This document shows, piece after piece, positions 4,326 through 28,715 of a stretch of DNA of 64,000 nt; the first letter of the stretch is position 1, and each line of letters opens with the position of its first letter. The stretch is from sequence record NC_019517.1. One strand, given 5' to 3'. The position numbers and the translations under genes are program-made. The notes beneath the pieces are model-generated. The model did not search any database and was not told the DNA's origin. It was given only the letters and a program-made list of their open reading frames with translations. Source of the DNA: Escherichia phage FV3.

Positions 4326-5132
4326 TTGAGCAAGAAAGAGTCCAACGACAAATATTACACAGACCCTGAGTATGCAGAATATCTTGTTGGTAAAGTAAAA
4401 GTTAGGTATGGGAATTGTGCATACGTTGAGCCTTCTGCTGGAAAGGGTTCTTTTTCAAAACTATTTTCAGAGATACTGTCGTACGATTTGGTACCAGATC
4501 CTGAATTTGAAGGCCCAACACCGTGTATTAAGGCAAACTTCTTAGAGGTGTACCCTAAGGCTGATGTCTTCATAGGTAATCCTCCATTCGGCAAAAATTC
4601 GTCTTTAGCTTGCAAGTTCTTTAACCACTGTGCATCATTGCTAGAGCCTGGCGGGGCTATAGCCTTCATCTTGCCACGGACATTTGAAAAAATATTTTTT
4701 GCAAACAAGCTGGACATGTCAATGCACCTTATCTACAGCGAAAGGTGCCCCAAGAACTCGTTTTTACTTAACGACAAACCTTATGACGTGCCATGTGTTT
4801 TCCAAATTTGGGAGAAAAAGGTGTGCAATAGGGATCCTGTAGAGATTGGGGAGAATAAGTTATTTTCTTTTAGCACACCAGATGACTACGACTTCTGCAT
4901 AAGACGTGTTGGGTATAATGCTGGAAAAGTATTGGGGGAGGATGACCCAAAATCTGAAGAATCAACATATTTCATAAAATCTTTAGTTGATGGTGTTGAC
5001 AGAGTGTTTGCTGAATGCTATTCTTCTTTTCAAGAAGAAGCAGGTAAGACTGCTGGAATGAAGAGTATAGGCAAGAAAGAACTACAATACATTTTGGAGA
5101 CTAGGTATGATCAAAAGTATAGACTTGACTAA
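4326..5132 (+). CDS. N6-adenine DNA methyltransferase (motif I then NPPF)
   Basis: EPSAGKGSF (motif I) and IGNPPFGK (motif IV); no in-frame ATG before the motifs, proposed TTG start at 4326 after GGAGG RBS. Confidence 0.6.
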   Translation: MSKKESNDKYYTDPEYAEYLVGKVKVRYGNCAYVEPSAGKGSFSKLFSEILSYDLVPDPEFEGPTPCIKANFLEVYPKADVFIGNPPFGKNSSLACKFFNHCASLLEPGGAIAFILPRTFEKIFFANKLDMSMHLIYSERCPKNSFLLNDKPYDVPCVFQIWEKKVCNRDPVEIGENKLFSFSTPDDYDFCIRRVGYNAGKVLGEDDPKSEESTYFIKSLVDGVDRVFAECYSSFQEEAGKTAGMKSIGKKELQYILETRYDQKYRLD

Positions 5133-8971: not shown

Positions 8972-11283
8972 TCACCAAGGTAATTAAAAGCAACGGATGT
9001 GAAGTGGCATTCGATCCAGAACGTTTAAATAAGGCAGCTATTTTCGGTGACGACGGTAACGGCAATTGGTCACATATTGCACTTGATGCATACAAACGGC
9101 TGTATGATGGGTGTACAACCAAAGAAGTTAACCAAGCTATCATAGACTCCTGTGTTAGCCGTAAAGACGAAGCTCATTCTCGTATGGCTGGTCGTGTTCT
9201 TATCGGTCAGATTTATAAAGAGGCTTTTGGAGGATTTACAAAGATCCCTTCCTTACCCTCATTTTACAATACCATGGTTGATAAAGGGTATTGGGAGGAT
9301 ATGGGTTATAGCTTTACCGAGTTAAACACTTTAGACGCTGTTATTGATCACAGTAAAGATCTCGGTTATGGCTATGCAGTCCTTAAACAGTTTCGCGACA
9401 AATATGGGATCAAGGATACTCTTAAAGACACCCTGTTTGAATCTCCCCAGATGATGTTTATGGGGATAGCAATGGCTGTCATGAAGAATATGCCGAAAGA
9501 ACGTCGTATCAACGATGTTGTAAAATTATACACTTATCTGTCGGACTTGAAGATTAATGCCCCGACACCGTACTTAAACGGTCTACGCACAGGTAAGACA
9601 GGGTATGCATCTTGTTGCGTAATAAAAGCTGACGATACAGCAAAATCTATTGGTGTGGCACGTGAAGTTGCGTACACAATGACGGTTAACCAAGCAGGTA
9701 TTGGCTACTATCTATCATCAAGATCTGCAGGTGATGGTGTTCGTGGTAACACTATTAAACATATGGGCAAGCTTCCATATTATCGAGGCATTGATGCTGG
9801 GGTTAAGGAGAATAGACAACAATCACGCGGAGGTTCGGCAACGGTATCATTCCTTGCGCTAGATCCCCAGATTGATGAACTGATCCGTTTGAGAAACCCT
9901 ATGACTGTTGCTTCAAAAAGAATCAACACTATGGACTACTCTATAGGTATTAATAGATCATTTATCAACCGTGTGGCTAAGAATTTAGATTGGATGCTTG
10001 TTTCTTATAAGCACGCACCTCAACTGCACGAGGGTATCTTCACCATGTCTATGGATGAGTTTGATGCAGAGGTTGATCGTATCGCTAAAGATGACAGCAT
10101 TCCTAAAACATGGATCCGTGCTAGAGACCTTGCTGTTGAACTGATCACGCAGCGTACCGAGGTAGGCAGGCTGTATGTGTACTGGACAGATGAGATGAAT
10201 AGGCATACACCTTTTAAAGATGTAATCTATTCAAGTAATCTGTGTGCAGAGATAGCCCTTCCGACAAAAGGCTATTCAGATATGCGTAATATCTTCAAGT
10301 ACGATGCTGATGATGGTGAGGTTGCATTGTGCTTCCTATCATCCCTTGTAGCTGGAAGGGTTACCCCAGAGGAGTATGAGGATGTTGCATACTACACTGT
10401 GCTTATGATTGACAATGTTATGGAAATCATGACATATCCGTATGAAAATATGGAGAGCACTGTTAAAAAACGCAGATCCATCGGGGTTGGCCTTACCAAT
10501 ATTGCACATTTTATTGCCAGCCACAAGGTTGCTTACGGGTCTCCTGAAAGTAAACAGCTTGTTCACGATCTTGCAGAGCTTCACAGCTACAGCTTGCATA
10601 AGGCAAGTTTACGATTGGCAAAAGAGCGTGGTGTCTGCGAGTGGATGCATAAAACAAAATACCCAGAGGGTTGGTTACCAATCGACACTTATAACAAAGA
10701 GGTCGATAGTGTGGTGAAAGATCCTTCTCTTAAGCAGGATTGGGAAGGGTTACGTAAAGAAATTATTGAAAACGGTGGACTACGTAATAGCGTTCTTGAA
10801 GCATATATGCCTAATGAAAGCTCCTCGTTGGCAACAAACACAACTAACGGGGTTTATCCTGTCCGTGAGCACATTATCTTTAAAAAGTCGCCACAAGGAC
10901 AGGTGCTGTTTATCGTTCCTGAATATGATGAACTGAAAGAGTATTATACCTCGGCTTGGGACGTTGATACTAACGACATGATTGATATGTATGCTGTGAT
11001 TCAAAAATTCACAGGACAGGCAATCAGTGCTGACCTATATATTGATTACACCAAGTTGAAAGATGGTAAAATTTCAATGAAGGAGCAGCTTGGGTATCTT
11101 ATCCGTGCTACTAAATTCGGGATGAAGACATGGTATTACTTAAACTCTCGGGTTGGTGCTGGTGACTCTTTGACAGAGGAGCTTCACGCGAAGAAACAGG
11201 CTGAAGATGAAACCAGAAAGAACTATCCTTTGATTGCAGATAGTTCAGTTGAAGATCCGTATTGCGAAAGTTGTGCACTGTAA
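8968..11283 (+). CDS. nrdA: ribonucleotide reductase class I large subunit
   Basis: 771-aa ORF; N-terminal ATP-cone (VIKSNGCEVAFDPERL), active-site NLCAEIALP, C-terminal Cys pair. Confidence 0.9.
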   Translation: MITKVIKSNGCEVAFDPERLNKAAIFGDDGNGNWSHIALDAYKRLYDGCTTKEVNQAIIDSCVSRKDEAHSRMAGRVLIGQIYKEAFGGFTKIPSLPSFYNTMVDKGYWEDMGYSFTELNTLDAVIDHSKDLGYGYAVLKQFRDKYGIKDTLKDTLFESPQMMFMGIAMAVMKNMPKERRINDVVKLYTYLSDLKINAPTPYLNGLRTGKTGYASCCVIKADDTAKSIGVAREVAYTMTVNQAGIGYYLSSRSAGDGVRGNTIKHMGKLPYYRGIDAGVKENRQQSRGGSATVSFLALDPQIDELIRLRNPMTVASKRINTMDYSIGINRSFINRVAKNLDWMLVSYKHAPQLHEGIFTMSMDEFDAEVDRIAKDDSIPKTWIRARDLAVELITQRTEVGRLYVYWTDEMNRHTPFKDVIYSSNLCAEIALPTKGYSDMRNIFKYDADDGEVALCFLSSLVAGRVTPEEYEDVAYYTVLMIDNVMEIMTYPYENMESTVKKRRSIGVGLTNIAHFIASHKVAYGSPESKQLVHDLAELHSYSLHKASLRLAKERGVCEWMHKTKYPEGWLPIDTYNKEVDSVVKDPSLKQDWEGLRKEIIENGGLRNSVLEAYMPNESSSLATNTTNGVYPVREHIIFKKSPQGQVLFIVPEYDELKEYYTSAWDVDTNDMIDMYAVIQKFTGQAISADLYIDYTKLKDGKISMKEQLGYLIRATKFGMKTWYYLNSRVGAGDSLTEELHAKKQAEDETRKNYPLIADSSVEDPYCESCAL

Positions 11284-11321: not shown

Positions 11322-12410
11322 ATGTCCGTATTTAATACTGAGAACACTGCTCATAAAACTGGTGATTATCCGCTGTTTCTAGGACAGCAGATGGGGATGT
11401 ACGACTCTATTAACAAAAAGTATCCACAGCTGTTTGAACTATACAAAAAACAAAAAGAACAAGATTGGGCAGAGGACGAAGTAGATTTGTCACAGTCTAT
11501 TTCTGATTTCGTAACATGCTCAAAGTCAACTTACGATGTGATGGTGCAGACACTGATGTGGCAATGGGAGGCAGACAGTGTTGCAGCAAGATCTATCATT
11601 TGTCTGTTTTCACCATTTATCACCAACAGTGAGCTTTTCACCTTGTTGATGAAGCAGTCTGAGATTGAGGTTCTTCATGCACTAACTTACTCAGAGATTG
11701 TTAGACAATGCCTTCCTAATGCTCGCGAGATTATAGAAGAGATTCAGGAAAACCAGAACGTGCTGAGCAGATCTGGAATTATTGTCAAATATATGCAAGA
11801 GCTTGAGGTTATTGGTGCAAAATACCGACTGGATCCTTCCAGTGTTGAAGAAGATGTTGTACGGAAATGTATCCTTAGAGCACTTTTTGCACTTTTAGCG
11901 CTAGAAAGTATTGAGTTTATTGCAAGTTTTGCATGTACGTTCGCAGTAGCTGAGCAAGGTATTTTTGTTCAAGTGGCACAACTTGTTCAAAAAATTATGC
12001 TTGATGAAATGCTGCATTCGAAAGGTGATTTTGCTATCATCGATATCCTGCTTGATGATCCTGCATGGGAGCAAAGCTTCCTTGAGATTAAGGGTGAGTT
12101 AAAAGAAATTCTTGACGAAGTGCGGACCAAGGAGTACGGTTGGAGTGACTATATTTTCAGCGAAGGAAGAGCAATTATAGGTCTTAACTCACCATTACTT
12201 AAAGAATGGGTTGACTATAACTGCTCACCGATTTATGATTACTACAACATCGACAAAGACTTTGTGCCGCCAACAAAAGACCCGCTACCGTTTATGCAGG
12301 TGTGGATGAAACCTTCACTGCAACAGACGGCTAACCAGGAAATGTCTAACACTGACTACCGCGTCAACACAACTGTTAACGACGCTGAAGAAGAAATTTG
12401 GGAGTTTTAA
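11322..12410 (+). CDS. nrdB: ribonucleotide reductase class I small subunit
   Basis: 362-aa ORF directly after nrdA; ferritin-like protein with conserved acidic/His ligands. Confidence 0.8.
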   Translation: MSVFNTENTAHKTGDYPLFLGQQMGMYDSINKKYPQLFELYKKQKEQDWAEDEVDLSQSISDFVTCSKSTYDVMVQTLMWQWEADSVAARSIICLFSPFITNSELFTLLMKQSEIEVLHALTYSEIVRQCLPNAREIIEEIQENQNVLSRSGIIVKYMQELEVIGAKYRLDPSSVEEDVVRKCILRALFALLALESIEFIASFACTFAVAEQGIFVQVAQLVQKIMLDEMLHSKGDFAIIDILLDDPAWEQSFLEIKGELKEILDEVRTKEYGWSDYIFSEGRAIIGLNSPLLKEWVDYNCSPIYDYYNIDKDFVPPTKDPLPFMQVWMKPSLQQTANQEMSNTDYRVNTTVNDAEEEIWEF

Positions 12411-12413
12411 TAT

Positions 12414-12692
12414 ATGAGCTGCGAAAAATCTTTTTTCATCATCATTTACGGTAAGGATAACTGCCCACATTGTGTAAGAGCAAAAGAATTTGCAGTCAGT
12501 AAAGGCATACCTTTCGTATACAAGACGCTAGGTGAAGGATACACAAAAGAAGAGCTTATCGAGAAGTGTAGCCCATTTGTTCCCAGAACGTTGCCTCAGA
12601 TCTTCTTGGAAAGCAACCTTGACAGTATCCACATAGGTGGTGCTGACGATTTCATCTCTTTTGTTAAGAATGGTTTTGGAGAGAAAAAGTGA
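12414..12692 (+). CDS. glutaredoxin-like protein (phage NrdC-type)
   Basis: 92-aa ORF with CPHC active site and C-terminal PQIF...IGGADDF typical of glutaredoxins. Confidence 0.7.
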   Translation: MSCEKSFFIIIYGKDNCPHCVRAKEFAVSKGIPFVYKTLGEGYTKEELIEKCSPFVPRTLPQIFLESNLDSIHIGGADDFISFVKNGFGEKK

Positions 12693-20709: not shown

Positions 20710-20943
20710 ATGAAAGTTAAATTTCTTACAGATTTAGGGTACCCTTCCTTGGTTGACTGCGTTGGTAAAATTGTGGAAGCAAAACGACTATCTGCAAACG
20801 ATAATGTTGTCATGGTTAAGGGAAAAGATTTACTATCTGCAGGTGCAGAGTCTGGCAGGATCTCTCCTGACTATACGTATTACCTGTCTTTAAGTAATCT
20901 ACCAGAACGAGGCGGCAAAGGCCTTGAAGTTGTGGAGGAGTGA
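20710..20943 (+). CDS. small acidic protein, MKVK family
   Basis: 77 aa; MKVKFL... ending LEVVEE; RBS GGAGG. Confidence 0.5.
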   Translation: MKVKFLTDLGYPSLVDCVGKIVEAKRLSANDNVVMVKGKDLLSAGAESGRISPDYTYYLSLSNLPERGGKGLEVVEE

Positions 20944-21467
20944 CAGGTATGCTGCTAGTTGATTGGAAAGATTTTTATGGCGATAAAGACCCGAAAGCCT
21001 TTATATATAAACCTTGGAGATACTCAGAGAGTCAAATTGCTGCAATAAACCTTACAGCAAAGCGCCGAAAAATTATCGAAAGTAAATACAGGTACGCTCA
21101 GCTAGTGGCTGGTGTTTCTCCACAGGTAGAGAGTTTTGTGCTTAAACTGTACGAAAAGTTTATGAGTTACGATCTGTCATTCGTGAAGGTGGGTGAGGAT
21201 TTATCCCCTGGTAACAACGTAACACGTTGGAAAGTTTCATGCGACAAAAAACTTCCGGTAAGTATTGAGGTGTGTCGATACTGGGGGTATCATGAGTGTG
21301 GCTTTTATGACTACCATGATGTAGAAATAAAGCCACGCAATCATCTAAGCGACCCAGAAAAAGATTACTTGAAGCATGTGATTCTTTCCATGTTTGGAGG
21401 GTATATCACAGAGAAAAATAGCGAAGACAGAATATCCTTTCTTAACAGTTTGAACCGGGAGATGTAG
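20940..21467 (+). CDS. hypothetical protein
   Basis: 175-aa ORF. Confidence 0.5.
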   Translation: MTGMLLVDWKDFYGDKDPKAFIYKPWRYSESQIAAINLTAKRRKIIESKYRYAQLVAGVSPQVESFVLKLYEKFMSYDLSFVKVGEDLSPGNNVTRWKVSCDKKLPVSIEVCRYWGYHECGFYDYHDVEIKPRNHLSDPEKDYLKHVILSMFGGYITEKNSEDRISFLNSLNREM

Positions 21468-21468
21468 T

Positions 21469-21705
21469 ATGACTATAGACACTGTGCTGGTTTGGTATTG
21501 CGCATTGACCTTTCTGACAATGGTTGTTTTAGCAACTCTTTGCATCATATCTTGTAGAAAAATTAAGTTTGACGACTTTATAACTATAATCACTGCCGCA
21601 CCTTTTTGGCCTGTTGTTCTCTTCATTGCGGTTATGTGCTTGGTGGATCACTGTAAAACCGTCAGGAAAATGAAGGAGGCAGATAAGAATGGTAACAGTG
21701 ACTGA
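21469..21705 (+). CDS. small membrane protein
   Basis: 78 aa with two hydrophobic segments. Confidence 0.45.
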   Translation: MTIDTVLVWYCALTFLTMVVLATLCIISCRKIKFDDFITIITAAPFWPVVLFIAVMCLVDHCKTVRKMKEADKNGNSD

Positions 21706-21907
21706 AACTGTTTATACTGTTCTTAGGGAGATTGCATTCTATACAGACCTTAGTTCAGTATCTTCATGGGAAAAGAGTGTGTATTTAAAATGGTGCGTGA
21801 AATTAGAGGGGACCTTCTAATGTTTCAAGCCATGTTTATTGAAATGCTCTCCGGAGTATTACTGCTGGTAGCCATTTTGGGTGGTGCGGCGCTAATGTAT
21901 AATTATC

Positions 21908-22111
21908 TTGAAAAAGGGGACAGTAATGACAAAAAATAAATCCTTAGAACAGGCTGAAAACCTTCTCCACGAGCTGGTAAAGGAGTGGAAAGTTGAATAC
22001 TCAGATTTTAATGCAAGAGAGGGGGAAGATTATTGGCCTACGGAGCGCTCAGAGGGAGAGTGGTATCAAGATTTCATAGAATGGTTATATCAGACGTGCG
22101 ATGAGGGGTGA
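21908..22111 (+). CDS. hypothetical acidic protein
   Basis: 67-aa ORF; likely ATG start at 21926. Confidence 0.4.
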   Translation: MKKGTVMTKNKSLEQAENLLHELVKEWKVEYSDFNAREGEDYWPTERSEGEWYQDFIEWLYQTCDEG

Positions 22112-22569
22112 CGATGTTTGTTAAATATGTAAAAACGTGCCTCAACAACCTTGGTAGAGAGCATTGGTACACCTTGCTTGAAAAAGGAGAAATTTTAACA
22201 AAATCTGGAAAGATAACTCTGATACCTTTGGATGATAAAGACCCGTCACTACTTGTCATAGATGATTACGTTACAGGTGTGTCGTACGAGGTCTCTGTGG
22301 AGAGGTTAATACGCAGATCTGGAGGGCCTTATGACCGAAGAGAGTATGTTTTCGATTCTGTTACAGAGAAGGAGGATCCGTCTCTAATGTTTAGGATGGT
22401 AATCAGGGATATGAAATCATCTATAAATAGGATTGTAAAGGACATTAAGGAGCCTTTTAGGGTAAAAGTTAAGAAGTTTTTTGATTCTAAGATTAACATA
22501 CTCGCCGTTGTGCTAGGCGTAATTCAACTTCTGTTAATTTTGCACTATCTTGAACTGTTGTTCAAGTAG
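22108..22569 (+). CDS. hypothetical protein with C-terminal TM segment
   Basis: 153-aa ORF. Confidence 0.5.
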   Translation: MTMFVKYVKTCLNNLGREHWYTLLEKGEILTKSGKITLIPLDDKDPSLLVIDDYVTGVSYEVSVERLIRRSGGPYDRREYVFDSVTEKEDPSLMFRMVIRDMKSSINRIVKDIKEPFRVKVKKFFDSKINILAVVLGVIQLLLILHYLELLFK

Positions 22570-22577
22570 TGTGCAAC

Positions 22578-22594
22578 AAGGCACAAAGGATGTG
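22578..22594 (+). promoter_or_regulatory. intercistronic stem-loop (copy 2 of 2)
   Basis: GGCACA-AAGGA-TGTGCC immediately after stop of 22108..22569; compensatory to 15620-15635. Confidence 0.4.
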
Positions 22595-22629
22595 CCATGA
22601 TTAAATAAACTAAGAAAGAGGTAGAGAGA

Positions 22630-22977
22630 ATGCCAAAGATTAAGTCGATATTAATGTGGGCAGCTGTTGTGGCTTTTGTAGGATACTGGACTTGGGAAAC
22701 TGAATTAAAAGATATCGGGTATACCAGTCTTGAGAGCAAGGCATGCATTGGCATAACCGATGCATTCAGGCAAAATGCTATGGATCACGAATGTGTCGAT
22801 GCAGATATAGATGAGAAACTGTCTAAGGACAAGGATTTTTACCATGGTCATGCCTTGCTTGATAGTGGTGACACTGTAGAATTCTGGTCGTGGTTCCGTG
22901 AAGATGGAACAATAAAGACAGCAGTAAAGATTTCCAACAAAGAGTTAATGCTGTTGCAGCAGAAGGAGGTGCAATGA
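22630..22977 (+). CDS. hypothetical protein with N-terminal TM/signal segment
   Basis: 115-aa ORF; RBS AAGAGGTAGAGAG. Confidence 0.5.
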   Translation: MPKIKSILMWAAVVAFVGYWTWETELKDIGYTSLESKACIGITDAFRQNAMDHECVDADIDEKLSKDKDFYHGHALLDSGDTVEFWSWFREDGTIKTAVKISNKELMLLQQKEVQ

Positions 22978-23261
22978 TCTGGATATCCTACACTGATGGC
23001 ACCATGCTGTATACTGCAGGTACTAGGTATGAAGTTCAGGAGGACGATAAAAAATTTATCGTAAAAACATTTGACAAGGACGAAAACCTTTTGTTAGAAT
23101 TGACTTACAAGGTTGGGGAGGTATCTAGCATCCAATTGGATTGCGGTCATAAAGATAACCCACTCAAGAAACCTGGGGTAGGTAAAGCTTCAGAAGAACG
23201 CCTGTCTCGTATTGCAGAAAGCGTTTCTGCACAAAAATCTAAGAAGGGGACTAGAAAATGA
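22974..23261 (+). CDS. hypothetical protein
   Basis: 95-aa ORF. Confidence 0.45.
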   Translation: MIWISYTDGTMLYTAGTRYEVQEDDKKFIVKTFDKDENLLLELTYKVGEVSSIQLDCGHKDNPLKKPGVGKASEERLSRIAESVSAQKSKKGTRK

Positions 23262-23452
23262 AAAACTTACGTTTTAACACTTATTACTACAACACTTTGA
23301 ATGATTTGTATTATATTATTCGAAGTAAAAGTCCTGAAACAGTCCTATTCTGCCGCGAACCTTTCAAAGGGGAGGAAGTAGAGTCTGAGATGAATGTTAG
23401 CCATATTACCTCTTTGTTGCTCTCAGGTGCAATGGAAGAAGCAATATTCTAA
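23258..23452 (+). CDS. hypothetical protein
   Basis: 64-aa ORF. Confidence 0.4.
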   Translation: MKNLRFNTYYYNTLNDLYYIIRSKSPETVLFCREPFKGEEVESEMNVSHITSLLLSGAMEEAIF

Positions 23453-23470
23453 ACCAGGCGGGAGGGTTTT

Positions 23471-23656
23471 ATGAAGCACTATTGCCTGTTTGGTAGGATG
23501 GGTGTAGAGTGTGATTGGGTTTTCTTAAAACTTGTCAGCATCCGAGAGTCAATCCCAGAGGAAGAGCAAGAAAGTGAGCTGATGTCATGGATCAGCTATT
23601 ACGGCAACACTTTCCGGTATGTCAAAATGGAAGGGCTGCCAAGCGAGGATGATTGA
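23471..23656 (+). CDS. hypothetical protein
   Basis: 61-aa ORF. Confidence 0.4.
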   Translation: MKHYCLFGRMGVECDWVFLKLVSIRESIPEEEQESELMSWISYYGNTFRYVKMEGLPSEDD

Positions 23657-23751
23657 TTATGATTGCATCAATATTAACGTTTATGGGTGGCGTGGCGGTC
23701 GGATTCATTATTTGCCTGTTTATAGTGATTATGTCTATGCGAGGCTGACTT

Positions 23752-24036
23752 ATGAAACTGTTCGAGTGGTTTAAAAAGTTTAAATACCGGGCCGTTGCTG
23801 TATCGAAATGGACTGTCCGCTGGGTGGACAATGATGGAACACAAATTCCAGGTGATCAGGATACCGGATACTGGGTTATGATGGAGAACGGATTTGGGAA
23901 AAGGAAGTTTAAATGTGTTGGTGCTCCTACCCTTTTAAATGTTAGAAGTGTGCCAGGGTACAGCACTCTGGTTGTTTGGGAGCTATCCGGTGTTCCTCCT
24001 GCCAATGTGCAATACTTGCCAAATTCAGAAAAATAA
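23752..24036 (+). CDS. hypothetical protein
   Basis: 94-aa ORF. Confidence 0.45.
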   Translation: MKLFEWFKKFKYRAVAVSKWTVRWVDNDGTQIPGDQDTGYWVMMENGFGKRKFKCVGAPTLLNVRSVPGYSTLVVWELSGVPPANVQYLPNSEK

Positions 24037-24048
24037 AAGGAGAAAATA

Positions 24049-24333
24049 ATGAGCAATGGTATTAGCAACAATGCTGCAGAGTTTAAAGTGATCTGTAAAG
24101 GCACTTATTGGATAGTGAAACAGAAGGTGTACCTATTCGGTTTCATACCGTTTTGGCAGAGATTTTGCTGGGGAGCTAACGAGCTTAAGAGATACGCCAC
24201 CAAGGCTATGGCACTTATTGGTATAGCTGAATACATTGCTGCCAGGGACAGAGAGGGGAAAACTTGTTACTACACTGCTGACGAGATTCGTAACAGTGTT
24301 TACGTTCCACAACCGCCCGATGGAGACCGCTGA
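24049..24333 (+). CDS. hypothetical protein
   Basis: 94-aa ORF; RBS AAGGAG. Confidence 0.45.
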   Translation: MSNGISNNAAEFKVICKGTYWIVKQKVYLFGFIPFWQRFCWGANELKRYATKAMALIGIAEYIAARDREGKTCYYTADEIRNSVYVPQPPDGDR

Positions 24334-24557
24334 TGAAAGTGAAAGTTTTAGATTCAAACTTCTATATTGGTCAAGAGCCTTTAGTTGGAAAAGTGTTTAC
24401 CGCTATCCCTAACGAAGATTATCCTGACCTTTTAAAAATAAAAGGGGAAGATCTTATTGCCGCTGGCGCGTCTCAGGAATGCTTTGACAGTCAGTGGGCC
24501 TACAACTTTGCCCTAGGGGAGGATGTGGAGATAGTGGAGGACGATTATGAAGGTTAA
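24333..24557 (+). CDS. small acidic protein, MKVK family
   Basis: 74 aa, MKVKVLDSNFYIGQ...; tandem paralog of next gene. Confidence 0.5.
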   Translation: MKVKVLDSNFYIGQEPLVGKVFTAIPNEDYPDLLKIKGEDLIAAGASQECFDSQWAYNFALGEDVEIVEDDYEG

Positions 24558-24801
24558 AATTCTTGACTCTAACGTCTACTTGGGACAATCATTCCTGAAG
24601 GGAAAGGTAGTACCTGCTGTATACTTCGAAGGGTTGCCGTGGGATGATCCTGTGCGGCAAAATCACAGCTATGTAGGCCACAATGTGGTGTTCATTTTGG
24701 GATCAGACCTGATCGCGGCTGGTGCTCCGGAATATTATTTCGGAGAGGACTCGTATTATGCCTTTGGGGTAGGGTCAGATGCAGATATTTTAGAGCCGTG
24801 A
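24547..24801 (+). CDS. small acidic protein, MKVK family
   Basis: 84 aa, MKVKILDSNVYLGQ... Confidence 0.5.
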   Translation: MKVKILDSNVYLGQSFLKGKVVPAVYFEGLPWDDPVRQNHSYVGHNVVFILGSDLIAAGAPEYYFGEDSYYAFGVGSDADILEP

Positions 24802-25212
24802 TTGGGGACTGTTGTGAAAAATAAACTGTTCAAAGTTACAATGAAAATTCGCGGAGCTTGGAGCGTAAAGCAAGGGCGTATCCCGGAATTTGAGAAAGAC
24901 TTCTACGTAGTCTCCACCTCTGAAGAGGCTGCATGCTGGCAGGCTGGCTATGCCTATGCAAGAACTTGGTACGAAGGGTACCAAACTGGGGGCTATGACG
25001 GAGAAATTGTCAGTAAGGGTGTGGAAGAAATTAATGTGTTGACAAGTGAAAAAGTTTTTGTTATAGTGCATCCTGATTCCAGAGTGAAGCATTACTGGAA
25101 TGCCAGAACAAAAACCTGGACACCATTTGCAGATTCTGCTACACCACTTTTAAACCAGAAAGCTCTTGACTCTGCCCCGAGCTACGGGGTTGTTGAAGAA
25201 AAAATAAGCTGA
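24802..25212 (+). CDS. hypothetical protein (paralog of 27016..27411)
   Basis: Shares HP.S...YW....WTP motif with 27016..27411; start uncertain (ATG at 24841). Confidence 0.45.
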   Translation: MGTVVKNKLFKVTMKIRGAWSVKQGRIPEFEKDFYVVSTSEEAACWQAGYAYARTWYEGYQTGGYDGEIVSKGVEEINVLTSEKVFVIVHPDSRVKHYWNARTKTWTPFADSATPLLNQKALDSAPSYGVVEEKIS

Positions 25213-25229
25213 AATAGTGGGGTACTTAC

Positions 25230-25520
25230 ATGATGGATTTAGTTTTGGATACTGATAACACCGAATCGTTTAAAAAAGATGGTGTAATAAGCATGGACCA
25301 ATCCTGCCATGCCAAGATTGACTCAAAATGGACCTACAAGTTTGACGGTGAGATCTTCGCAAATGATGAGAAGGTTGTGGATGCTGTAGCCATTTTAAAC
25401 GCTTTAGGGTATGACCCTGTGAACTCATTGATCAAGGATCCTGTTGAGTTTGCAGAGTATGTTCGTAAAATGGCAGATCTTGCAGTAGATATTTTAAAAA
25501 CTATCGACGACAAGCTGTAA
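25230..25520 (+). CDS. hypothetical acidic protein
   Basis: 96-aa ORF. Confidence 0.45.
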   Translation: MMDLVLDTDNTESFKKDGVISMDQSCHAKIDSKWTYKFDGEIFANDEKVVDAVAILNALGYDPVNSLIKDPVEFAEYVRKMADLAVDILKTIDDKL

Positions 25521-25526
25521 AAACTG

Positions 25527-25555
25527 TTGACACAACATTTGATCTTTAGTATCAT
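25527..25555 (+). promoter_or_regulatory. sigma70-like promoter (TTGACA-17-TATCAT) upstream of hpf-like gene
   Basis: TTGACA 25527-25532, TATCAT 25550-25555; followed by hairpin 25564-25584 and RBS AAGGAG. Confidence 0.5.
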
Positions 25556-25602
25556 TATTTCCAAAGAGGGTTTGGTTCCCTCTTCTTTAAAAGGAGCACG
25601 TT

Positions 25603-25920
25603 ATGCAGATTGAAATTACTGGCAACGTAGAGATCACTGAAGGTATGGTGTCTTTCATTTCCCACAAAATGTCCAAACTGGAGCGTTTGCACCCATCTGC
25701 CAACTATGCACGTGTGAGTGTAAAAGTTGAAAATGATCACCAGGAAGTTATGGCTTTTATTTTTGACAATTCTGGGAAAGAAGTTATCGCCAAAGCTAAA
25801 GGTAGCGATGCTTACGAGGCAACTGACCGTATGGTGGATGTTGCAGCACGCCAGTTGGCTAAATGCGGTGGAAAGAAAGGTAAGGGAAAAGGTAAAGTAA
25901 AGATTGACTTTTGGGATTGA
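25603..25920 (+). CDS. hpf: ribosome hibernation promoting factor homolog (HPF/RaiA/YfiA family)
   Basis: 105 aa; MQIEITGNVEITE...KLERL...VSVKVE...AKAKGSDAYEATDRMVDVAARQLAK aligns along its length with bacterial HPF as recalled; Lys/Gly-rich tail. Confidence 0.75.
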   Translation: MQIEITGNVEITEGMVSFISHKMSKLERLHPSANYARVSVKVENDHQEVMAFIFDNSGKEVIAKAKGSDAYEATDRMVDVAARQLAKCGGKKGKGKGKVKIDFWD

Positions 25921-26057
25921 GGTGCTACAATGAGTATGATTAAGAAATTAGTCCCAAATGTAGAGATTGCATGCTTTGAAATTATGTTTGCAATCGCAGT
26001 TGTAGTTAATGTGTTAGGTTACGACTATTAATATCAAATAATTGAGGAGACCTCTAA

Positions 26058-26327
26058 ATGAAAATTAAATTATTCAAAACTGAGCTGGCAGACAAAAACT
26101 GCGGACTGGTTGAAGGCATGATCGTTGAAGCACAACCAGTGGACTACATGAAGGTGGTTCGTGATGCTCTGGGTGAAGGTTTTGATCTGATGGAGCCAGC
26201 TCTGCGAGAAGATGTCATCGAGATGGCTAAAAAGCACACACCTGAAGGCTTGGTAGTGTTTGTTGCTCCAGGTAACGGAGAAGAGTTGATTGTAACTCCG
26301 GATGTGTATGAGGTTGTAGAGGAGTAA
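26058..26327 (+). CDS. small acidic protein, MKVK family
   Basis: 89 aa, MKIKLF... ending YEVVEE; RBS GAGGAGA. Confidence 0.5.
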   Translation: MKIKLFKTELADKNCGLVEGMIVEAQPVDYMKVVRDALGEGFDLMEPALREDVIEMAKKHTPEGLVVFVAPGNGEELIVTPDVYEVVEE

Positions 26328-26415
26328 TCTTGGGTTAGCCATACTTCCTCGACAAGAAAGGTTTGTAATTATTTGTGGGAAAGGAATCCCCATCTCTTAC
26401 CAGAGGTGATACTGT

Positions 26416-26679
26416 ATGATTGTTTATTTTAAAACTTCAGGTGGATACCCTGATTCTCAAAGCTTGATTGGAAAAACGTGCACAGCATACTCGCCTCTTG
26501 ATGATGAGGTAAGTGATACCCTACGAAATATGTATCGGATTGATCCACAAGAAGCTTTTGATCAGAACCTTGTATTTGTCAAGGGCTCAGACATGAAGTC
26601 TTTGGGGGCATTTCCTGAAGCAGATGATAATGCTGTTTATTCGTTTATGACCCCTTTTGAAGCTATGGTTGTTGGGTGA
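26416..26679 (+). CDS. small acidic protein (probable family member)
   Basis: 87-aa ORF. Confidence 0.45.
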   Translation: MIVYFKTSGGYPDSQSLIGKTCTAYSPLDDEVSDTLRNMYRIDPQEAFDQNLVFVKGSDMKSLGAFPEADDNAVYSFMTPFEAMVVG

Positions 26680-26683
26680 GAAT

Positions 26684-27016
26684 ATGAAAGTACGCTTTAT
26701 TGGTGAAACAATTCCTGTGCATCTCCGGTCGCCTGAGGATTCTGCAGATCTTGCATCTCAAAAGGCCAGAGGGTATGATAAGAAAGTAATCTCAACCGAT
26801 GTAGAGCTTGAGGCTACCAGTCTGCCTGACCCTGCTGCATTCTTTAATCATTATGGATACTATTTCAGCAATCTGATGAATATCGGTGAGCTTGTGTTTA
26901 TTAGTGGTGGAGAAATAGTTAGCAAGCTTGGCGGCGATCCGGATGTCTTTCATGAAACCTGCCCTTTTGCATTTGTGGTAGGTTCAGATGTGGAAGTTAT
27001 TGAGGAGGTGCGGTAA
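26684..27016 (+). CDS. small acidic protein (probable family member)
   Basis: ATG at 26684 (MKVRFIGE...), ends VEVIEEVR. Confidence 0.45.
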   Translation: MKVRFIGETIPVHLRSPEDSADLASQKARGYDKKVISTDVELEATSLPDPAAFFNHYGYYFSNLMNIGELVFISGGEIVSKLGGDPDVFHETCPFAFVVGSDVEVIEEVR

Positions 27017-27411
27017 TGGTAAGTCTATACCGTGTTGAGTATAGCTCAGATACTGTATACAACGTAAGAAGCAAAGATCGTAGCGACAGAGTGCAAGAAA
27101 TGTATGTTCTTGCCGACAGTCCGTTATCTGCAGCGTTTAAGGCAGGAGCTCTTGCATCTCGTTGGAAATTCGAGGGTGGATCTTTCTATGAAGAAACTCT
27201 TGAAGATTCTGTTGTTATTTCTTCTGTAGAGGTTTCAACTGACTACGAAGGGAAAAAGTTCGTAATGCGGCACCCACACAGCAACATTGCGTACTACTGG
27301 GATGTTCTGAACAACGAGTGGACTCCAGATCTTCAGAAGGCCACTGTTCTGACTCCGTTCTTGGCAGATAAGTTCCCACCAGAAGGTAATTTATCTGCAC
27401 TGTTTCAGTAA
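27016..27411 (+). CDS. hypothetical protein (paralog of 24802..25212)
   Basis: 131 aa; shared HPHSNIAYYW...WTP motif. Confidence 0.5.
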   Translation: MVSLYRVEYSSDTVYNVRSKDRSDRVQEMYVLADSPLSAAFKAGALASRWKFEGGSFYEETLEDSVVISSVEVSTDYEGKKFVMRHPHSNIAYYWDVLNNEWTPDLQKATVLTPFLADKFPPEGNLSALFQ

Positions 27412-27429
27412 TTTTATTCTACACAGGTG

Positions 27430-27458
27430 TTGACAACACCAACCCTGTGTGCAATAAT
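27430..27458 (+). promoter_or_regulatory. sigma70-like promoter (TTGACA-17-AATAAT)
   Basis: TTGACA 27430-27435; TGTGCAATAAT resembles an extended -10. Confidence 0.4.
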
Positions 27459-27487
27459 ACCTTCATCTTAACAAGACAGGAGACTGA

Positions 27488-27748
27488 TTGATGAAGATTA
27501 AATTGAAAAACCTTGAAATGGCAGAGGTTCAGGAAGGTGTTGATTTCCGCTCTAAAGATGGCGACATCTTAGAGGCGAATATCCCGACCTATAAGTTGAT
27601 TAAAGGTTTTGGCAACGTTCCTGAAGAGGATATTACAGACATTCTTATGATGTTGATCCTTGACGGGACCGTGTTTGTAGGTGAAGGTGAGAACGCTATT
27701 GCAATCCCAGGCCATTTTTATGAAGTAGTTGACGAAGAGGTGCTGTAA
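27488..27748 (+). CDS. small acidic protein, MKVK family
   Basis: 86 aa, MMKIKLKNLE... ending YEVVDEEVL. Confidence 0.5.
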   Translation: MMKIKLKNLEMAEVQEGVDFRSKDGDILEANIPTYKLIKGFGNVPEEDITDILMMLILDGTVFVGEGENAIAIPGHFYEVVDEEVL

Positions 27749-28099
27749 ATGAAAGTAGAGATCACAGGTTTTGATATGAATGTGGTTCCGGAAGATATTT
27801 TAGCTAAACTTCCGGAAGGTTTTGGTAACGGTGTTGTGGTGGATGCTGTCCCTCCTACCAAAGACATTCTGCTGCAGTATGGTGTAGCAGAGGAAGATGT
27901 CGATAAAGTTCTTACAATGATGGCAATAGACCGTGTTGTCGTTGTTAAAGGTCTTGAAGGTTTTGATGACGATCCTCTGATTATTCGTGGTGATGACTAT
28001 CGCATCATCGACAACGAAGGCCAAGAGTTCTACGAACCTTCTGCTGAAGATGTTCTTAACTTACTACTGGAAGCAGGCACCGAAGAGGAGGAAGAATAA
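27749..28099 (+). CDS. small acidic protein, MKVK family
   Basis: 116 aa, MKVEITGFDM..., poly-Glu C-terminus. Confidence 0.5.
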   Translation: MKVEITGFDMNVVPEDILAKLPEGFGNGVVVDAVPPTKDILLQYGVAEEDVDKVLTMMAIDRVVVVKGLEGFDDDPLIIRGDDYRIIDNEGQEFYEPSAEDVLNLLLEAGTEEEEE

Positions 28100-28428
28100 T
28101 GAAAATTGATCCGTTACTAAAGGCTCGTGCAGAAAAAGCATACACTATCAAGCTGACCTCTCTGGTCCCTACTTGTCATCCGGATGTAGGTTGGCCTGAA
28201 GGCCTGGTAGAGGGGACTGTAACAGCTGCATACCTTCCTAACATCAAATACCTCATGGAGATCTTGGAGATGGATGAGGAAACGGCAGAACAGTTCCAGT
28301 TAGACATGAAGCAAAGTGGGACTCTGGTTATTCACGGGTGGTATAATACTAAAGATGCAGAAGATCCCCTGGTAACTTCTAATCTGGCATATGAAATCTT
28401 AGGACCTTTGAACTTGGGGGAAGACTAA
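28099..28428 (+). CDS. hypothetical acidic protein
   Basis: 109-aa ORF, ATGA-coupled to neighbours. Confidence 0.45.
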   Translation: MKIDPLLKARAEKAYTIKLTSLVPTCHPDVGWPEGLVEGTVTAAYLPNIKYLMEILEMDEETAEQFQLDMKQSGTLVIHGWYNTKDAEDPLVTSNLAYEILGPLNLGED

Positions 28429-28715
28429 TGAAAGGTTTGGTTAAGATCAAGATTAAAGACACCAAGGGAGAACTCAGCCATTTTGGAATTAACGATGGTG
28501 ACGAGCTGATCGCCCACCTGCCTACCAAGGAAGTTGTAAGCAAAGCTGTTGCCGGAGAAGAAGATGCAATGCAGGCTGCAGGTGTGGATGAAAACTATGT
28601 AGCAATGTGTATGTGCCGAGATCAGGTTGTTCTGTATAAAGCGTATCGACCAAATGGAGCACCTGAGTGGCTTGTTTTCCGACCCGAAGGGTATGAAATT
28701 TTAGAGACGCTATGA
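28428..28715 (+). CDS. hypothetical protein
   Basis: 95-aa ORF. Confidence 0.45.
   Translation: MKGLVKIKIKDTKGELSHFGINDGDELIAHLPTKEVVSKAVAGEEDAMQAAGVDENYVAMCMCRDQVVLYKAYRPNGAPEWLVFRPEGYEILETL

Follow-up and report, generated by a model that had tools for sequence, protein, structure and literature searches.

Two divergent X-X-Z gene series in the accessory region of an rV5-like coliphage and their probable duplication history

In a stretch of 64,000 nucleotides of Escherichia phage FV3 (NC_019517.1), referred to in its full length as the window, two series of three small genes lie between positions 24333 and 27411. These series raise the question whether one is an echo of the other, produced by segmental duplication followed by divergence as the original prediction held, and whether the three genes were copied together.

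Gene content and setting of the two series

The window comes from an rV5-like coliphage (Vequintavirus) with 98% identity to phage HMD-6 and, over the compared span 24000–28000, ~92.5% identity to rV5-type records. All six ORFs, designated set or cassette A (A1–A3) and B (B1–B3), were found on the + strand where predicted. Their counterparts are annotated in HMD-6 and rV5 (gp135–137 and gp142–144), and they are direct orthologs of rV5 hypothetical proteins. Purifying selection acts on all six (dN/dS 0.00–0.18 vs rV5), indicating that they are real genes. The features of the region, including members of the families designated X, Y and Z, are as follows.

20710..20943, +: X5, fifth X-family member, unlinked, 77 aa, small and acidic; X-family HMM E 3.5e-9, phrog_5009 E 8.5e-36
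24333..24557, +: A1 (rV5 gp135), short X-family form of 74 aa, pI 4.05; phrog_5009 E 6.6e-38; dN/dS 0.18 vs rV5
24547..24801, +: A2 (rV5 gp136), X family, 84 aa; 11-nt overlap with the 3' end of A1; phrog_5009 E 3.6e-32
24802..25212, +: A3 (rV5 gp137), Z family, 132–136 aa; phrog_7379 E 2.4e-73; dN/dS 0.09; model pLDDT 77.5
25230..25520, +: unrelated gene, 96 aa, phrog_12029; last gene of the upstream run
25527..25555, +: promoter-like site, sigma-70-type, TTGACA-17-TATCAT, 11/12 consensus; corresponds to annotated rV5 promoter P144
25603..25920, +: HPF/RaiA homolog (rV5 gp139); PF02482 E 1.8e-12; TIGR00741 45.9 bits (cutoff 40.9)
26058..26327, +: Y1 (rV5 gp141), first of the Y genes, which make up another small acidic family; Y HMM E 5e-24
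26416..26679, +: B1 (rV5 gp142), 87 aa, divergent member of the X family; phrog_13920 and weak phrog_5009 E 1.4e-4; dN/dS 0.09
26684..27016, +: B2 (rV5 gp143), 110 aa, a divergent X-family protein carrying insertions; phrog_13661; zero nonsynonymous changes vs rV5
27016..27411, +: B3 (rV5 gp144), Z family, 131 aa; start overlaps the B2 stop; phrog_7379 E 4.2e-66; dN/dS 0.03
27430..27458, +: promoter-like site, sigma-70-type, TTGACA-17-AATAAT; corresponds to annotated rV5 promoter P150; opens the next gene run
27488–27748, 27749–28099, 28099–28428 and 28428–28715, +: Y2–Y5, four tandem Y-family genes; Y HMM E 1e-27 to 1e-30; pairwise z 3–9

Relatives are annotated with A3 beginning at the GTG at 24814 instead of the TTG at 24802. 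X5 is followed by an unrelated gene of 175 aa and not by a Z gene. The placement of an hpf-like gene between the two series proved correct, the HPF homolog matching PF02482 (Ribosomal_S30AE) at 48.3 bits, above the curated cutoff of 23.7. The promoter-like sites before HPF and after B3 are strong, and none comparable was detected upstream of B1 in the promoter scan; cassette B apparently shares one transcription unit with the phage HPF gene. Judged from the promoter matches alone, the X and Z genes would be transcribed early, and the region would form part of a sigma-70-driven early accessory region of the rV5-like Vequintavirus. The paired sets are one piece of a broader expansion of small accessory genes, which is ordinary for large lytic phages.

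Relationships within and between the sets

The third genes of the sets had been called clear paralogs, and A3 and B3 are indeed a clear paralog pair: they share 27% identity across 111 aa (BLASTP E 3e-11), with a Smith-Waterman score of 112 where shuffled sequences gave 28 ± 4.5 (z = 18.5). The motifs quoted for them, RVKHYWNARTKTWTP and HSNIAYYWDVLNNEWTP, are present, and both proteins match phrog_7379, a family annotated 'unknown function', end to end (A3 residues 6–135 on profile positions 1–130 of 131, B3 on 1–131 of 131). The Z proteins are alpha/beta proteins of ~130 aa. A search of the whole library with an A3/B3 profile gave five genuine relatives, every one within this phage group, and a word-indexed protein search with A3 returned nothing beyond near-identical orthologs and fragments. 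Three long repeat proteins (P0033–P0035) were discarded as spurious Z relatives, having only short repeats in common (RYYWTV; FYLLNNPDVAAAV.AG..GW.HY).

The first two genes of each set belong to one small acidic family, X, with an SH3-like predicted fold. The strongest X pair by far is A1 and A2 (41% identity, E 1e-15, z 26). Between the sets, A1 vs B1 is weak taken alone (E 0.06, z 3.6), and A2 vs B2 scores modestly (E 1e-4, z 7.9) and is about equalled by A1 vs B2 (z 7.3); the cross-set pairs reach 27–41% identity, but only in short local segments of 28–40 aa. As a non-circular test of family membership, an HMM built from A1/A2 orthologs only was run on the 923 ORFs of the window. It recovered B2 (E 4.2e-6), X5 (E 4e-5) and B1 (E 2.2e-4), the next ORF following at E 5, more than four orders of magnitude away, and A1, A2, B1 and B2 are therefore truly one family, yet without one-to-one correspondence. 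The motif layout common to the X family is MKVK..G.V.A..[insert]..LVFV.G.DL...G.....Y.F..G.D.EIVE, and the shared motifs are kept in orthologs. Full-length matches to phrog_5009 were obtained for A1, A2 and X5, with only a partial match for B1, and B2 is absent from the matches at E ≤ 0.01; PHROGs files B1 and B2 apart from this family, and the link is made here by profile searches only. X5 is the sole X member retained in the most divergent relatives, and phages of the mEp010/mEp021 type carry X5 homologs that are 42–49% identical.

With five X, five Y and two Z genes, at least twelve rV5-like orphan genes fall into three families. The X and Y proteins have pI values of 4.0–4.6, and Y1 resembles Y2 (27488–27748) with z 6.2. 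The architectures of X and Y look alike. Their union in one superfamily is unsupported, the hhalign probability being 2–18% in four settings and also with larger alignments.

Aligning the two sets as nucleotides and comparing 22–30.5 kb with itself revealed nothing besides a single 26-nt match of 85%, located in the 3'-terminal parts of A2 and B2 (24756–24781 vs 26965–26990). The pairwise alignments proposed to check the duplication thus gave significant protein similarity for A3/B3 and modest similarity for A2/B2, but not for A1/B1, and next to nothing at the nucleotide level, which is not decisive because such a loss is expected for a very old event. The X-X-Z order is present twice in the same + orientation (permutation p ~1e-3, both X pairs taken as given), and since a repeated order of this kind is improbable by chance, a segmental origin is plausible. 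A resemblance due to chance or composition with no true duplication would agree with the lack of significant nucleotide similarity and with the A1 vs B1 comparison taken alone, but it is already refuted by the alignments: the A3/B3 score, the independent PHROG assignment of both proteins to one family, the gap in the HMM search and the motifs kept in orthologs leave it practically no probability.

Distribution in relatives and probable duplication history

Synteny in related genomes, suggested as a means of timing the duplication, places the event before every available relative. One divergent lineage retains the B3 type only and another the A3 type only; A1–A2 occur without A3 in one divergent lineage, and A3 occurs without a neighbouring X gene in another. 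The L003/L008–L011 clade lacks B1, B2, B3 and HPF together and keeps X5, an A3-type Z gene and Y genes; its A3 orthologs are 39% identical to A3, B3 being further off (27%). In some phages a single in-frame A1/A2 chimera (P0019) is followed by A3; the resulting X-Z cassette was seen in two independent assemblies and is a sign of ongoing recombination. In Bas59 (EduardKellenberger) window positions ~20992–25127 are missing and set A is gone entirely, which indicates that the phage can do without cassette A, and possibly without both cassettes, under laboratory conditions.

We consider it probable that the region holds two ancient paralogous cassettes, each consisting of X-family genes and then Z, which arose by X-Z duplication and tandem X duplication with later loss and fusion and which encode non-enzymatic binders. 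An ancestral X-Z unit would have been duplicated before the divergence of the known relatives, X would then have been duplicated in tandem inside each copy, and copies would later have been lost, fused or replaced depending on the lineage. Duplication of an X-Z unit combined with local tandem X duplication is the simpler history, and saturation of the deep branches prevents proof.

The original prediction amounts to duplication of the X-X-Z block as a unit, in which B1, B2 and B3 are the counterparts of A1, A2 and A3 and later divergence accounts for every difference. Repeated gene order, similar gene sizes and the permutation result are in its favor, and duplication with strong divergence of an order present twice is upheld; a single three-gene block, however, predicts that A1–B1 and A2–B2 are sisters, a pairing that the data do not show. 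When 11 X-family members were placed in a bootstrapped NJ tree, (A1,B1) and (A2,B2) occurred in 6% and 8% of bootstraps, compared with 61–68% for (A1,A2) and 30–47% for (B1,B2). The positional counterpart is the closest relative for A3/B3 only, and the gene-by-gene echo of the first two genes is no more than partly right. The tree favors X duplication within each cassette, with deep branches that are poorly supported and saturated. High divergence, weak tree signal and the limited support for the competing (A1,A2) clade temper this argument, and the A1/A2 chimera makes past homogenization of A1 and A2 conceivable. Nevertheless, A1 and A2 have no detectable nucleotide similarity, so there was no recent conversion; their identity exceeds in extent the short segments shared by cross-set pairs; and no indels are common to A1/B1 or A2/B2. 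A fixed three-gene unit is also at odds with the unlinked X5 without Z, the chimera with A3, A1–A2 without A3, and A3 without an adjoining X gene, and a block duplication is on balance unlikely.

Internal segmental duplication would be dispensed with altogether if cassette B and HPF had been acquired laterally from a phage with diverged X and Z genes, or if X and Z had expanded independently with selection for X-then-Z adjacency. The joint absence of B1–B3 and HPF in the L003/L008–L011 clade would be accommodated by acquisition, as would the fact that B3 is more distant from A3 than the A3 orthologs of this remote clade are, and X-family genes do move among unrelated phages, as in mEp010/mEp021. 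Mizuno et al. placed the HPF sequences of coliphages among those of Gammaproteobacteria and inferred a fairly recent gene transfer (PMC6375957). However, no donor lineage was found, the whole-library Z profile search having yielded this phage group only, and the same pattern would result if the L003 clade had lost the B cassette. Such an origin seems distinctly improbable, and two ancient cassettes derived from an X-Z unit remain the preferred history.

Possible functions and known counterparts

Searches of Pfam, NCBIfam and PDB sequences with X, Y and Z gave no matches, the PHROG families of these genes are all annotated 'unknown function', and a BFVD search returned only uncharacterised phage proteins, with marginal matches in phages 4MG and GAP31. 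No paper on these genes was found in the literature, and the main text of the BASEL paper contains nothing on them and does not mention Bas59 or EduardKellenberger. No sequence relationship to characterised takeover or anti-defence proteins was found. A toxin-antitoxin or defence-system reading was dropped, no supporting domain or architecture being present. The X and Z proteins carry no catalytic signatures, and their most likely role is to bind host macromolecules in early infection without acting as enzymes. The confident X structure model (pLDDT 92.6) has matches limited to SH3, Spt5-KOW, PsaE and OapB barrels, and its predicted fold may be that of the small beta-barrels of the SH3-like/KOW type. 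The N-terminal half of the Z model bears a weak resemblance to the eL20/L18a/LX ribosomal protein fold; no corresponding sequence-profile match was found in Pfam at E ≤ 1 or among PDB ribosomal-protein sequences at E ≤ 10.

The host translation apparatus may be the target of the X and Z proteins, a suggestion made with low confidence. A more specific and very doubtful reading is that the unit from P144 to B3 (HPF, a 33-aa ORF, Y1, B1, B2 and B3) is a host-ribosome-directed phage operon, in which the eL20-like Z and KOW/SH3-like X proteins would be ribosome- or rRNA-binding partners needed by the phage HPF and cassette A would serve another ribosome state or host as a diverged second set. When rV5 HPF was expressed by itself, it showed no binding to purified ribosomes (PMC6375957); a need for X and Z partners would explain this result, which at the same time leaves the link between HPF and the ribosome unproven in the rV5-like phage itself. 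In relatives the linkage of X and Z is not strict, which weakens the idea that they act jointly. If the weak ribosomal-fold resemblance and the HPF linkage reflected a phage system manipulating host ribosomes, the region would gain in importance; cassette B with HPF is one testable unit.

The region is an example of accessory early-region evolution in a common, therapy-relevant coliphage group, combining in one place old cassette duplication, tandem duplication, in-frame paralog fusion, lineage loss and kilobase deletions under purifying selection, and the grouping into three families reduces the number of independent unknowns in rV5-like phages. Small early 'host-takeover' or accessory gene clusters are present in large lytic phages, as in the SPO1 host-takeover module and the early regions of T4 and T5. 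The FV3 genes appear similar to these clusters in their dense same-strand arrangement of genes of 60–130 codons, sigma-70-type promoters and acidic products, and likewise in local expansion of orphan families, strain deletions and laboratory dispensability.

Gene sets A and B and their surroundings

All six ORFs that the original prediction placed in a duplicated three-gene module are present, and both sets sit within a long series of small co-oriented genes upstream of a strand switch at ∼30 kb. Window 24000–28000 matches 119 phage records, nearly all from Vequintavirus; identity over this interval is 98.4% for Escherichia phage HMD-6 and ∼92.5% for the rV5-type records listed. Eighteen GenBank records named ‘Campylobacter phage’ (MG0656xx, host C. 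jejuni) are ∼90–95% identical over the full region length, and their host label looks doubtful. The gene for the RaiA/HPF homolog lies between the two sets as predicted, and likewise in rV5.

Genes of the two sets, with rV5 counterparts
24333–24557, + strand: A1 (gp135), family X
24547–24801, + strand: A2 (gp136), family X
24802/24814–25212, + strand: A3 (gp137), family Z
25603–25920: RaiA/HPF homolog (gp139), between the sets
26416–26679, + strand: B1 (gp142), family X
26684–27016, + strand: B2 (gp143), family X
27016–27411, + strand: B3 (gp144), family Z
20710–20943: X5, 77 aa, phrog_5009, family X, distant from both sets

Relative to rV5 (dS 0.15–0.38), dN/dS is 0.18, 0.08, and 0.09 for A1, A2, and A3, and 0.09, 0.00, and 0.03 for B1, B2, and B3, respectively, a pattern of purifying selection that supports all six as real genes.

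Families X and Z and the origin of the repeated order

The proposed paralogy of the third genes is borne out: A3 and B3 are 27% identical over 111 aa (E 3e-11), they align locally with a score of 112, compared with 28 ± 4.5 in 300 shuffles, and both match phrog_7379 over full length. Judged by sequence they are unambiguous paralogs, constituting a second family, Z, with a near-neutral pI for A3 (7.8) and an acidic one for B3 (4.85). The gene-by-gene echo holds only in part for the first and second genes, among which the strongest pair, A1–A2, lies within set A (41% identity, E 1e-15, z 26); B2 is about equally similar to A1 and A2 (z 7.3 and 7.9), and B1 is weakly similar to them (z 3.6–4.9). 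Meaningful nucleotide similarity between the sets is absent. An HMM made from A1/A2 orthologs alone, to avoid circularity, was run against all 923 window ORFs and matches B2 (E 4e-6), ORF 20710–20943 (E 4e-5), and B1 (E 2e-4), with nothing further better than E 5; A1, A2, B1, B2, and X5 therefore form one family, X. X5, followed by an unrelated 175-aa gene, is the best conserved member across divergent relatives and has homologs, 42–49% identical, in mEp010 and mEp021, unrelated coliphages of 54 kb.

The order X-X-Z occurs twice. With the X pairs kept fixed, only 192 of 200,000 random gene orders place a Z gene immediately after each pair, so that either common segmental descent or selection for adjacency is likely. 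A one-step duplication of three genes would make A1+B1 and A2+B2 sister pairs. In a neighbor-joining tree computed from 67 columns and 11 X proteins, where each of five orthologous groups has 94–100% support, these pairings receive 6% and 8%, respectively, against 61–68% for (A1,A2) and 30–47% for (B1,B2). The simplest reading is that an ancestral X-Z unit would have been duplicated, followed by local duplication of X in each copy, a history that is tentative given the weak deep nodes. Joint acquisition of the B cassette and HPF by lateral transfer is possible, but the Z profile found no family member beyond this phage group among 1.84 billion representative proteins. Three long bacterial repeat proteins that match this profile through short recurring motifs (RYYWTV within Fn3-like repeats; FYLLNNPDVAAAV.AG..GW.HY repeats) are probably chance matches raised by repetition.

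Gene content and turnover in relatives

Ordinary rV5-like contigs (L007, L012, L013) carry the full gene set. In L002, a divergent metagenomic phage of 128 kb, A1 and A2 precede an unrelated 96-aa gene at the A3 place, and HPF, Y1 (a gene of the Y family described below), and B1-B2-B3 come next; its sole Z protein is closer to B3 (40% identity) than to A3 (27%). A still more divergent clade (L003, L008–L011) lacks A1, A2, B1, B2, B3, and HPF and has X5, Y genes, and a single Z protein, closer to A3 (39% identity) than to B3 (26%). Because L002 has a B3-type Z alone and this clade an A3-type alone, the A3/B3 split is at least as deep as the divergence of all available relatives. Each of the two types is missing from some lineage, through loss or because it was never gained there, and linkage of X and Z is not obligatory.

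Other differences in gene content were observed in these genomes. A 91–96-aa gene common to the divergent lineages and without rV5-like counterpart occupies the A3 position in L002 (6692–6982) and lies upstream of the A3-type gene in L003 (7367–7642). The L003 early region contains an IS605 OrfB/TnpB-type gene (11532–12644), and an inserted P22_Y8K6-like gene (9092–9388) separates B3 from the Y genes in L002.

In two independent assemblies (L014, L015; 3501–3713) a 70-aa in-frame chimera, 91% identical to A1 in its 5′ part and 89% to A2 in its 3′ part, replaces the A1-A2 pair; the junction lies within GCTGGTGC of the DLIAAGA motif, an 8-nt stretch common to both genes, and A3 follows directly, giving an X-Z cassette. 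The BASEL phage Bas59 (EduardKellenberger; L005, MZ501061.1), isolated on E. coli K-12, has no counterpart of window ∼20992–25127. Some 4 kb has been naturally deleted or replaced there, taking out A1 and A2, the greater part of A3, and roughly a dozen further small genes, so under laboratory conditions the phage can do without set A. A fusion ORF at this site (4635–5102), annotated ‘putative glycosidase’, ends with the final 33 residues of A3. In P0004 (107 aa, from a 120-kb contig) the middle of A3 is joined to the C-terminus of the next gene (window 25230–25520), which implies another deletion variant.

Probable transcription units and candidate function

Elements around HPF and B3
25527–25555: promoter-like site before HPF, 11/12 consensus positions, coincides with annotated rV5 P144
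25565–25590: GC-rich hairpin (AAAGAGGG...CCCTCTT) between that site and the HPF start codon
25930–26031: 33-codon ORF (rV5 gp140) between HPF and Y1, encodes a hydrophobic peptide, annotated in relatives
26058–26327: Y1, family Y
27430–27458: promoter-like site after B3, 11/12 consensus positions, coincides with annotated rV5 P150
27488–28715: four tandem genes, family Y

The scan found no comparable site upstream of B1. From the placement of the promoter-like sites, HPF, the 33-aa ORF, Y1, B1, B2, and B3 look like a single transcription unit, and the preceding unit would end with set A. The hairpin could be a 5′-UTR regulatory or stabilizing element. The five Y proteins are small, very acidic paralogs that resemble X in architecture (MK[VI]K start, Y.[IV]VEE end), although profile-profile comparison does not support X–Y homology (probability 2–18%).

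X, Y, and Z have no match in Pfam or NCBIfam, and all their PHROG families are of ‘unknown function’. These proteins are small, acidic (pI 4.0–4.6 for X and Y), without catalytic motifs, dispensable, and quick in turnover. Their most probable role would be to bind host components stoichiometrically at an early stage of infection. Linkage to HPF and hints of predicted-fold resemblance (eL20-like for Z, KOW-like for X) tentatively suggest the translation apparatus as the preferred target; sequence support for the eL20 similarity was not found. When rV5 HPF was expressed by itself, Mizuno et al. (PMC6375957) did not recover it with purified 70S or 100S ribosomes and saw no change in 100S formation, a result that leaves a requirement for phage partners neither supported nor excluded.

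PHROGs already implied that A3 and B3 are paralogs, as are A1, A2, and X5; the modest additions here are the tie of B1 and B2 to family X, the fifth X copy, the synteny-based dating of the duplication, and the record of fusion and deletion variants. Small orphan gene families that expand and decay, as here, are a familiar phenomenon in the early regions of large lytic phages.
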